In this document: positions 13,042 through 14,847 of the stretch, piece by piece
How positions within the stretch are numbered: the stretch's first letter is position 1
Layout of the letters: every line of letters starts with the position of its first letter
DNA from: Escherichia coli
GTDB taxonomy: Bacteria > Pseudomonadota > Gammaproteobacteria > Enterobacterales > Enterobacteriaceae
DNA: 64,000 nucleotides
Strand: one strand, 5' to 3'
Assembly: GCF_024223415.1 (NCBI RefSeq)
Contig: NZ_CP100500.1
Notes under the pieces: model-generated
The model's database searches: none
Told to the model about the DNA's origin: nothing
Seen by the model: only the letters and a program-made list of their open reading frames with translations
Position numbers and translations under genes: made by a program

Positions 13042-14847
13042 ATGGCGGCTGTAAAAATTTCAGGCGTGCTGAGGGACGGAACCGGAAAACCGGTACCGGG
13101 ATGCATTATTGAGCTGAAAGCGAAGAGAACCAGCGAGACAGTCATCGCCACGACAGTGGCTTATGGCATGCCGGAAGAGACGGGGAGTTACAGTATGGAT
13201 GTGGAGCCAGGAATATACAGGGTGACACTCAATACAGAAGGTTACCGTCCTTCGTATGTGGGAGATATCGTGGTCAGGGAGGATTCTTCACCGGGAACAT
13301 TGAATAAATTTCTGATGGAGCTGGAAGATGCTCCTTATTATCCGAAGGCGTTGTCAGAGCTGGAGGCTGTGGTGCAGTCCATACTGCACAGAGCAGAGTC
13401 CGCGGCATCTGAGGCGGAGGAAGCCCGGAAACGAGCTGCATCTGCCCGGGGACCACGAGGAGAGAAAGGGGATACCGGCGCACGTGGTGAAAGAGGCATT
13501 ACCGGGCCACAGGGGCCAAAAGGTGAAACAGGAGCACGTGGCCCGGCAGGACCACAGGGACCAAAAGGTGAAACAGGTGAACGCGGTCCGGCAGGTCCAC
13601 AGGGACTAAAGGGCGATACAGGTGAACGCGGCCCGGCAGGTCCACAGGGACCAAAGGGTGAAACAGGTGCACGCGGCCCGGCAGGTCCACAGGGAGCAAA
13701 GGGCGAAACAGGTGAACGCGGCCCGGCAGGTCCACAGGGAGCAAAGGGCGAAACAGGTGCACGTGGTCCGGAAGGCCCTCAGGGTCTGAAGGGAGAAAAG
13801 GGTGAGCGAGGAGAAAAAGGCCCTAAGGGGGATAAAGGAGATCCGGGAGGTCCACAGGGACCAAAGGGGGATACAGGTGAACGCGGCCCGGCAGGTCCAC
13901 AGGGATCAAAGGGCGATACAGGTGAACGTGGCCCGGCAGGTCCTCAGGGACCAAAGGGGGATACAGGTGAACGTGGCCCGGAAGGTCCACAGGGAGCAAA
14001 GGGTGAAACAGGTGAACGCGGCCCGGCAGGACCACAGGGACCAAAAGGTGAAACAGGTGAACGCGGTCCGACAGGTCCACAGGGAGCAAAAGGTGAAACA
14101 GGAGCACGCGGTCCGGCAGGTCCTCAGGGACCAAGAGGAGAGTCAGCCCGTGGACAACTGCTGAATGGTGATCTGAACCGACTGGGACGAGTGACCGATC
14201 AGGGTGATTATTATCAGCCATCAGACAGTGGGGCTACACGAGAAAATAATTATCCGATTCAGAGAGCGGGTTATCTTCAGGTAAGAGTTGGTGCATGGGG
14301 ATATTGCCAGCATGAATATACAACCTGGAACCCACCACGAAAGTTCGTAAGAACTGTTACTGGTAATTTTACCGGTAATGGCCCCTGGTCTGAATGGAAA
14401 GAGCTGGGAGCCCAGGGGGAGCGTGGTCCACAGGGAGCAAAGGGCGATACAGGTGAACGCGGTCCGGCAGGTCCACAGGGACTAAAGGGGGATACAGGTG
14501 AACGCGGCCCGGCAGGTCCTCAGGGACTAAAGGGCGATACAGGTGCACGCGGCCCGGCAGGTCCGCAGGGACAGCCGGGGCAGCCAGCGAGCGTCGGAAG
14601 TGTTTATTCCGTGGGGTCTTATGTTCTGGGGATCATAGAACGAAATCATGAGGTAACAAATACCCGTGAAATACCCGGGTATCGTATCAGACAGGCCGTT
14701 ATTGTGTCGTCGTCATCGGATAAACTTACAGATATCCGCTTTTTATTTGGCGATCCTATGCTTGGTACATGGATGTTATGCACAACTAACATGACAGTGA
14801 ATAATATCATTGGGACGATTTGGGGCCTGTTTCAGAGAATACGGTGA
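13042..14847 (+). CDS. stf: Side tail fibre protein with lambda Stf-like N-terminus and collagen-like Gly-X-Y repeats
   Basis: N-terminus [18 protein letters not shown].. resembles lambda Stf; central region is [16 protein letters not shown] repeats; distinct C-terminal domain. Confidence 0.75.
13447..14140 (+). repeat. Collagen-like tandem repeat block 1 (45-bp period, about 15 units)
   Basis: ggaccaaaaggtgaaacaggtgaacgcggtccggcaggtccacag-type units, read directly. Confidence 0.8.
14407..14580 (+). repeat. Collagen-like tandem repeat block 2 (about 4 units), after an 88-aa non-collagen insert
   Basis: Same 45-bp unit resumes after [22 protein letters not shown]. Confidence 0.75.

Follow-up and report, generated by a model that had tools for sequence, protein, structure and literature searches.

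The 64,000-nucleotide stretch of Escherichia coli DNA analysed here (contig NZ_CP100500.1 of assembly GCF_024223415.1, referred to below as the window) carries an open reading frame much of which reads as collagen, and this raises the question of what such a protein is, how it is built and what its repeats might do. According to the ORF list and its translation, the gene occupies positions 13042–14847 of the + strand, to which all features below belong unless stated otherwise, and encodes a protein of 601 aa. The ORF upstream (9075–12983, 1302 aa) was assigned to lambda TipJ (J) by NCBIfam model NF049904 with 2313 bits against a curated cut-off of 1950. Between the two genes a GC-rich hairpin followed by a T-run was found by consensus scan and sequence reading (13002–13021, a putative terminator), and a GGAG ribosome-binding site was read 3' of this hairpin and 5' of the ATG at 13042. 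Only 15 nt past the stop codon starts a gene (14862–15437) for a 191 aa protein, a putative tail-fibre chaperone, which matched PHROG 1141 (E 2e-61) and has DUF4376 (PF14301, E 1.1e-20, aa 73–180) as its only Pfam match.

The initial annotation, made from the letters alone, had described the gene as a side tail fibre with an N-terminus like that of lambda Stf, and this description was borne out: residues 3–133 matched phage_tail_N (PF08400) with E 3.9e-39 over model positions 2–132 of 134, and comparison of the whole protein with PHROGs placed it among tail-fibre families (best E 2e-120). The window contains J, stf and the chaperone gene in intact form, and its set of tail-length ORFs is complete from about 128 to 17800. 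A gene for a YadA/Eib-type trimeric autotransporter, a surface adhesin, lies 1 kb downstream, and from about 21.7 kb the window contains the trp operon of E. coli, with 100% identity to several strains. The combination of TipJ upstream, PF08400 in the product and DUF4376 downstream identifies the ORF, as judged from its sequence, as an intact gene for the side tail fibre of a lambdoid prophage of E. coli, which adjoins the trp operon.

Scanning the protein for glycine at every third residue resolved six parts. The N-terminal tail-attachment domain, PfN (aa 1–136, 13042–13449), closes with a short helical segment rich in Ala and Glu at aa ~100–136, part of which gave a weak Pfam match to Alanine_zipper (aa 106–136, E 0.055). 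It is followed by collagen block 1a, which consists of 45 Gly-X-Y triplets (aa 137–271, 13450–13854) and was also recognized by Tandem Repeats Finder (TRF) and by the Pfam Collagen family (PF01391); all six Pfam collagen matches in the protein lie C-terminal of the PF08400 domain. The triplet scan then revealed a register break, G-D-P-G-G-P-Q-G (aa 266–273, 13837–13860), in which Q272 is the extra residue, and beyond it block 1b with 32 further triplets (aa 273–368, 14145 being the last nucleotide and 13858 the first). A non-collagen insert of 87 aa (aa 369–455, 14146–14406) separates these from block 2, 20 triplets long by the triplet scan and also detected by TRF (aa 456–515, 14407–14586), and the remaining 86 aa form the C-terminal tip domain (aa 516–601, 14587–14847 with the stop codon). 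The initial annotation was right about the globular insert that separates two blocks of collagen, about the four units, each of 15 aa, that follow it and about the distinct C-terminal domain, and its numbers hold to within one residue, but two of its statements needed correction: the 231 residues of block 1 agree with the roughly 230 claimed, though they are not perfect triplets throughout, being interrupted once by GDPGGPQG, and the segment given as 88 aa is present with a length of 87 aa.

At the DNA level the collagen blocks form two arrays with a 45-bp period, one at 13507–14134 (14.3 copies, 76% matches, TRF score 599; 731 when read with a period of 135 bp) and the other at 14425–14572 (3.3 copies, 92% matches, score 247), both scoring far above chance. 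A unit codes for the five triplets GP(A/E)-GPQ-GxK-G(E/D)T-G(E/A)R; block 1a opens and closes with a degenerate unit, and block 2 is made of about three regular units and a terminal GQPGQP. Pairwise nucleotide identity among the 14 in-register units averaged 84% (range 56–100%, with one identical pair), so that the term near-identical, applied earlier to all units, suits the core of the array and not the units flanking it. Counted over the 97 triplets, position X is occupied by Pro in 42% and by Asp/Glu in 36% of cases, and position Y by Arg/Lys (43%), Gln (19%), Thr (19%) and Ala (12%); no Cys, Phe, His, Trp or Tyr occurs in these blocks.

A class of phage proteins with this general plan was described by Ghosh et al. 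in 2012 (PMC3368898) as EPclA to EPclD, with PfN, one or two collagen domains of a length that varies between copies, and variable C-termini. According to the same source, in members with two collagen domains the first of them is broken once, at a conserved G-X-P-G-G-P-X-G motif, and its Table 4 gives for these EPclP proteins a preference for Pro and Asp/Glu at X and for Arg/Lys, Ala, Gln and Thr at Y, with no aromatic residues or Cys. The fibre has the PF08400 N-terminus, collagen with the same X/Y preferences, the GDPGGPQG break and a location within a prophage tail module. EPclA and EPclB are described there as having a PCoil of ~88–116 aa and a C-terminus of the PfC type (PF06820), the absence of which defines EPclC and EPclD. 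In the fibre the helical stretch ahead of the collagen amounts to only about 35 residues, and neither PfC nor Pf2 (PF03406) was matched in Pfam even at E <= 10; assignment to the EPclA or EPclB subtype was rejected for want of a long PCoil and of PfC. On these sequence characters the fibre belongs to the EPclP class; since a long PCoil, Pf2 and PfC are all missing, the type that it most resembles is EPclC, to which it likely belongs.

The published EPclC proteins, for instance ORF-401 of prophage P-EibA from ECOR-9, share with the fibre PfN, two collagen domains of which the first carries the conserved break, a C-terminus not of the PfC kind, the X/Y preferences, a variable collagen length and the lack of a long PCoil, and both prophages carry an Eib-type gene (PMC3368898). 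The two differ in dimensions: the first collagen block, with 231 aa, has about double the length found in the EPclC examples listed there (106–118 aa) and, among the proteins listed, is exceeded only by that of the single-domain EPclD protein Stx2-86_gp21 (322 aa). The non-collagen content amounts to 309 aa against ~285–287 aa in the EPclC examples, by lengths a difference of about 22 aa, so that the spacer or the tip may differ from those of ORF-401 and ECED1_1681/2081. EPclB proteins of Stx phages, such as Z1483 of 933W, also combine PfN, two collagen domains, the break and a spacer, but have a 109-aa PCoil, a Pf2 spacer and a PfC tip according to the same source, none of which was detected here. 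What the 2012 paper already describes is the class, its two-domain forms, the break and the variability of length, and by these measures the present copy is unusually long but ordinary. In the text of that paper the spacer between the collagen domains is not identified as a knob; the knob identity of the spacer, a tip family without database match and a series of length alleles in five-triplet steps are new.

With lambda Stf/Tfa the locus shares the N-terminal family, the position downstream of J and the presence of an assembly gene after the fibre gene. Unlike lambda Stf, the fibre has a shaft of collagen and no detectable Pf2 (PF03406) repeats. Lambda Tfa is of the Caudo_TAP family, whereas the protein encoded downstream here is a DUF4376 protein that gave no Caudo_TAP match in Pfam.

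In order to establish the nature of the 87-aa insert, which no Pfam family covers, it was compared by tblastn with isolated phages, and homologues with 32–45% identity were found inside annotated tail fibres of 88 of them. These phages are unrelated and include Drexlerviridae, T5-like phages, T4-like phages of Aeromonas and Yersinia, Kuravirus and phages of Vibrio, Achromobacter and Proteus. Searches of a word-indexed protein collection with the insert or the tip by itself returned almost nothing, an effect of the index and not of biology, as tblastn and exhaustive searching behaved differently. The alignment of 11 sequences displays the signature DLN...G.YYQ...A.A...NYP...AG.L.V...Q.Y...R...WS.W, and the profile built from it matched the R2 and R1 pyocin fibres 6CT8 (E 6e-13), 6CL6 (1.3e-12) and 6CL5 (1.8e-9) over profile positions 9–89. 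By our own mapping of chain positions, the matched stretch would correspond to the second knob of the crystallized fragment, Knob2, at residues 445–528.

The AlphaFold2 (AF2) model of the single chain agrees with this assignment. It is a confident model, with five strands at pLDDT 83.9, and its best Foldseek matches in the PDB were again 6CL5, 6CT8 and 6CL6 with TM-scores of 0.71–0.72 and probability 1.00, the value of 0.72 belonging to 6CT8 and 6CL6 and applying to the whole insert; sequence identity to Knob2 is only ~22%. The next matches, AS12 gp42 and phi11 gp45, both bear knobs and were named among the knob-bearing proteins by Buth et al. 2018 (PMC6116203). Structure prediction, as advised by the initial annotation, and the profile together identify the insert as an in-line knob domain of the pyocin Knob2 type, with a predicted antiparallel beta-sheet fold.

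In the pyocin work the knob is described as a beta domain that forms a trimer and has a double hydrophobic core; it was considered likely to be important for folding of the trimer, and Knob2 together with the distal domain was proposed to bind the cell surface (PMC6116203). As in the pyocin, the insert stands in line within a fibre that is predicted to be trimeric, upstream of a distal tip domain. The pyocin fibre has a tandem pair of knobs, flanked by helix-turn rods and an iron-containing shaft, whereas the E. coli fibre has a single knob between what would be collagen triple helices, and its tip, unlike that of the pyocin, is not recognizably lectin-like.

The tip domain, which ends in GLFQRIR, proved more refractory. 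It had no match in Pfam, PHROGs, PDB sequences or isolated phages, and an exhaustive HMMER search (phmmer) of 1.84 billion representatives returned its own cluster only; the three further matches in that search, P0006–P0008, were rejected, as they are repeat proteins whose scores are sums of many weak matches. End-to-end alignment was obtained with the C-termini of three E. coli collagen-like PfN proteins, P0043, P0089 and P0119, with hVGxaV, PG(T/S)W.xC and a terminal GLFQR as common motifs. Single BLASTP comparisons gave E 7e-9 and 5e-9, and hhalign gave 92% probability with E 6e-7, so that the tip is only weakly related in sequence to the C-termini of other collagen-like fibres of E. coli. 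Those relatives are likewise without annotation, Pfam giving P0089 no C-terminal family, and two related C-termini with GLFQRI gave no tblastn match among isolated phages and hence no tie to the PfC of Stx phages. When the tip-family profile was run against PDB sequences, coagulation factor XI came up at chance level only and was discarded. The AF2 model of the tip, computed from a shallow alignment, reached a pLDDT of 42 and is unusable.

Within 5426 complete E. coli genomes, the tip and the 5' part of the chaperone gene co-occur in only 22. In Alteromonas phages V22 and A5 the proteins annotated as tail-fibre chaperones belong to DUF4376, and that of V22 is essential for active fibres (PMC10579305). 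The V22 and A5 fibres, like the present one, have a central knob or knobs and a distal head and are followed by a DUF4376 chaperone gene; the number of knobs varies among their relatives, while among those of the E. coli fibre the knob is present or absent. The fibres of these marine myo- and schitoviruses have no collagen shaft, and the similarity of their chaperones to the present one is at family level only. From its position and its pairing with the chaperone, the tip may be a trimerizing and receptor-binding domain.

The architecture is rare, as the fibre gene was found in 22 of the 5426 complete genomes and the full-length knob insert in 20. An identical 1806-bp layout with 97.7–97.9% identity was present in 14 complete-genome records, representing about seven distinct genomes. 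Counting of repeat units across related isolates confirmed the expectation that fibre length differs between them: every block varies by multiples of five triplets, that is by one 45-bp unit, and every variant is in frame. In complete genomes, block 1a has 45, 35 or 55 triplets, block 1b 32, 37, 17 or 23 and block 2 20, 21 or 15. About 35 further protein clusters from drafts and metagenomes have an unbroken block 1 of 19, 24, 29, 34, 39 or 44 triplets and a block 2 of 10–21, the commonest form among them being one of 441 aa with 24 + 20 triplets. The register break is kept in all long-form relatives. Because the repeat number of the long form is invariant across the 14 records, the variation is not rapid.

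Two relatives, P0042 and the 457-aa form of strain TUM1886, have no knob, a lack that recombination of one collagen block with the other could explain. Of the 39 differences from the nearest relative, 36 lie in the gene's collagen half (binomial P = 6e-9) and none in the knob or the tip. Among the substitutions inside regular units, 24 of 26 bring in a base that another unit has at the same phase. This pattern suggests unit shuffling or gene conversion and not independent point mutation, though slippage may still account for changes in copy number. The variable fibre length expected by the initial annotation is upheld, while the counts do not tell the slippage that it invoked apart from unequal recombination or gene conversion, which the substitutions favour. 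Across the 20 genomes the knob and the tip are 100% conserved in DNA while the collagen varies.

These data bear on whether the fibre still serves infection, or whether the prophage is defective and the gene an intact-looking relic whose differences in repeat number reflect neutral drift. Several relatives have disrupted prophages, in which IS1414 is inserted in J, IS66 copies flank or interrupt the fibre gene, or pseudogene fragments occur, and megablast of the whole gene against 50,697 records of isolated phages gave no match. Lambda PaPa, moreover, carries a frameshifted stf, and the loss of Stf is tolerated. Set against this, J, stf, the chaperone gene and the tail-length ORFs are complete in the window, the knob and tip are identical across the genomes in which the collagen varies, and the reading frame survives in all length variants; globular domains frozen in this way and variants kept in frame argue for selection, and we hold it improbable that the gene is a relic.

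A second concern is the assembly itself, in which 45-bp units could have been collapsed, expanded or joined into a chimera so that the true gene has another length. Units that are 84% identical on average, two of them completely, are poorly resolved by short reads, and the exact protein is absent from ~15 billion catalogued sequences. However, the 1806-bp layout recurs in the 14 records from about seven genomes, the frame is intact throughout and variant alleles differ by whole units, which makes an artefact very improbable. It is scarcely credible that the product is instead a prophage-borne surface adhesin of the Scl1/Scl2 or Lcl kind, made by the lysogen and not part of a virion, for although NCBIfam collagen models for Lcl, SclA and SclB were matched at E 1e-61 to 5e-56 and the YadA/Eib-type gene is close by, the matches concern the Gly-X-Y part only and were rejected as all three fall far below the curated cut-offs (208 vs 500, 194 vs 400 and 190 vs 325 bits), the N-terminus is that of tail fibres, the gene's neighbours are J and a fibre chaperone gene, and inspection by eye disclosed no signal peptide or anchor.

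With these alternatives weighed, the locus is with high probability best explained as encoding the Stf of a lambda-like prophage, of the EPclP class, with a collagen shaft interrupted by a knob. PfN would dock the fibre on the tail tip, as in that class, and three chains would trimerize, a picture drawn from relatives, as are the triple helix, tail attachment and receptor binding. The short N-terminal helix, the knob and the tip may act as points of registration or nucleation for the triple helices. At a rise of 0.288 nm per residue (PMC3368898), the fibre would present a collagen rod of ~67 nm with one register break, the knob as a bead, a second rod of ~17 nm and finally the tip, which the DUF4376 chaperone would cap and fold. 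Knob and tip could then provide two spatially separated sites for binding to the host surface, as proposed for R-type pyocin fibres. Unequal recombination or slippage of the 45-bp units would lengthen or shorten the rods by five triplets at a time, and gene conversion would reshuffle these units while the globular domains stay constant.

A further and more doubtful proposal is that the rods are an evolvable spacer or ruler, in which gain and loss of units, together with occasional loss of the knob when the two collagen blocks recombine, adjust how far the fibre reaches and how widely its two receptor-binding modules, knob and tip, are spaced, both to match the thickness of the host's O-antigen or capsule; we regard this as unlikely. 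Were it true, the 601-aa allele would be a long-reach form, with ~67 + 17 nm against ~21 + 17 nm for the form of 441 aa, and selection in this prophage family would act on fibre length itself as a trait of host range.

Side tail fibres affect the speed of adsorption of lambdoid phages and the range of cells to which they adsorb. As lambdoid phages move virulence genes in pathogenic E. coli, knowledge of the parts of their fibres helps to predict host range; the knob spacer adds a second candidate binding site, and the tip is a member of a small family without a Pfam family, a solved structure or a confident model. The natural length alleles with their frozen globular domains may offer a ready panel for testing the role of fibre length. 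Nothing in the analysis overturns current understanding of these fibres.

Last, the repeats generate long spurious antisense ORFs, as had been pointed out from the sequence, namely 13499–13762 (− strand, 87 aa) and 13823–14221 (− strand, 132 aa), and ORFs in alternative frames of the + strand at 13328–13609 (93 aa) and 13802–14164 (120 aa). They arise because stop codons are depleted in the repeats, with 2–3 stops per 232 codons of block 1 in four of the five non-coding frames.

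The gene encoding the collagen-like side tail fibre (stf) is preceded by the gene for the lambda-type tail-tip protein J (9075-12983), and only 58 bp (12984-13041), with no gene, separate the two. In the related prophage loci L001, L002 and L004 the same junction is occupied by an Ail/Lom gene or, alternatively, by a pair of small hypothetical genes. As its content differs between the window and these relatives, the stretch between J and stf is a site of variable cargo in its own right. In the window, the 58-bp gap contains a terminator-like hairpin followed by a T-run (13002-13021), and if this hairpin is functional, fibre expression would need late-gene antitermination. 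A second strong hairpin, which scores on the minus strand, was found at 15451-15478, just 3' of the DUF4376 gene.

The product of the J gene is 1302 aa long. A 174-bp tandem duplication within the gene (11736-12061, 1.9 copies, 90% matches) gives rise to a repeated segment of 58 aa at about aa 888-996, which includes KKS.EQS.AIA.VDRKVD and looks like a coiled coil. The best NCBIfam stretch on J covers aa 1-945 and does not span this repeat.

The DUF4376 gene (14862-15437), which encodes a putative fibre chaperone, is a mosaic of two parts with differing distribution in E. coli genomes. Its 3' part, from about position 15070, shares 65-71% identity with DUF4376 genes of several hundred E. coli genomes, while the 5' part was found only together with the C-terminal tip domain of this fibre (22 genomes). 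Further on, 1 kb past the fibre gene, there is a gene for a YadA/Eib-type trimeric autotransporter of 469 aa (15876-17285), which matched the YadA anchor (E 1e-18) and PHROG 9547 (E 9e-63), and relatives of which are annotated as immunoglobulin-binding protein. This gene includes a tandem repeat of 99 bp (2.1 copies, 16514-16717), and its homologues in related prophages vary widely in length, from 1038 to 1542 bp.

The tail module of the prophage stops near 17.8 kb of the window and the chromosomal trp operon (21718-28248) lies beyond it. The trpA-E genes are 100% identical to those of several E. coli strains that do not have this fibre gene; thus, the prophage is an insertion near trp that is absent from otherwise identical backgrounds.

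In several related prophages (fibre-gene loci L001, L003, L004, L007 and L008), the fibre region is broken up by insertion sequences, with IS1414 located within J and copies of IS66/ISCro1 that border the genes for the fibre and its chaperone or interrupt them. Such disruption suggests that many copies of the fibre gene reside in decaying prophages. At least two fibre genes containing the pyocin Knob2-type insert were found in each of the single genomes NZ_CP033635.1 and NZ_OY754357.1, at distant chromosomal positions and hence in different prophages. More than one fibre copy per genome would supply partners for inter-copy recombination of the 45-bp collagen units.
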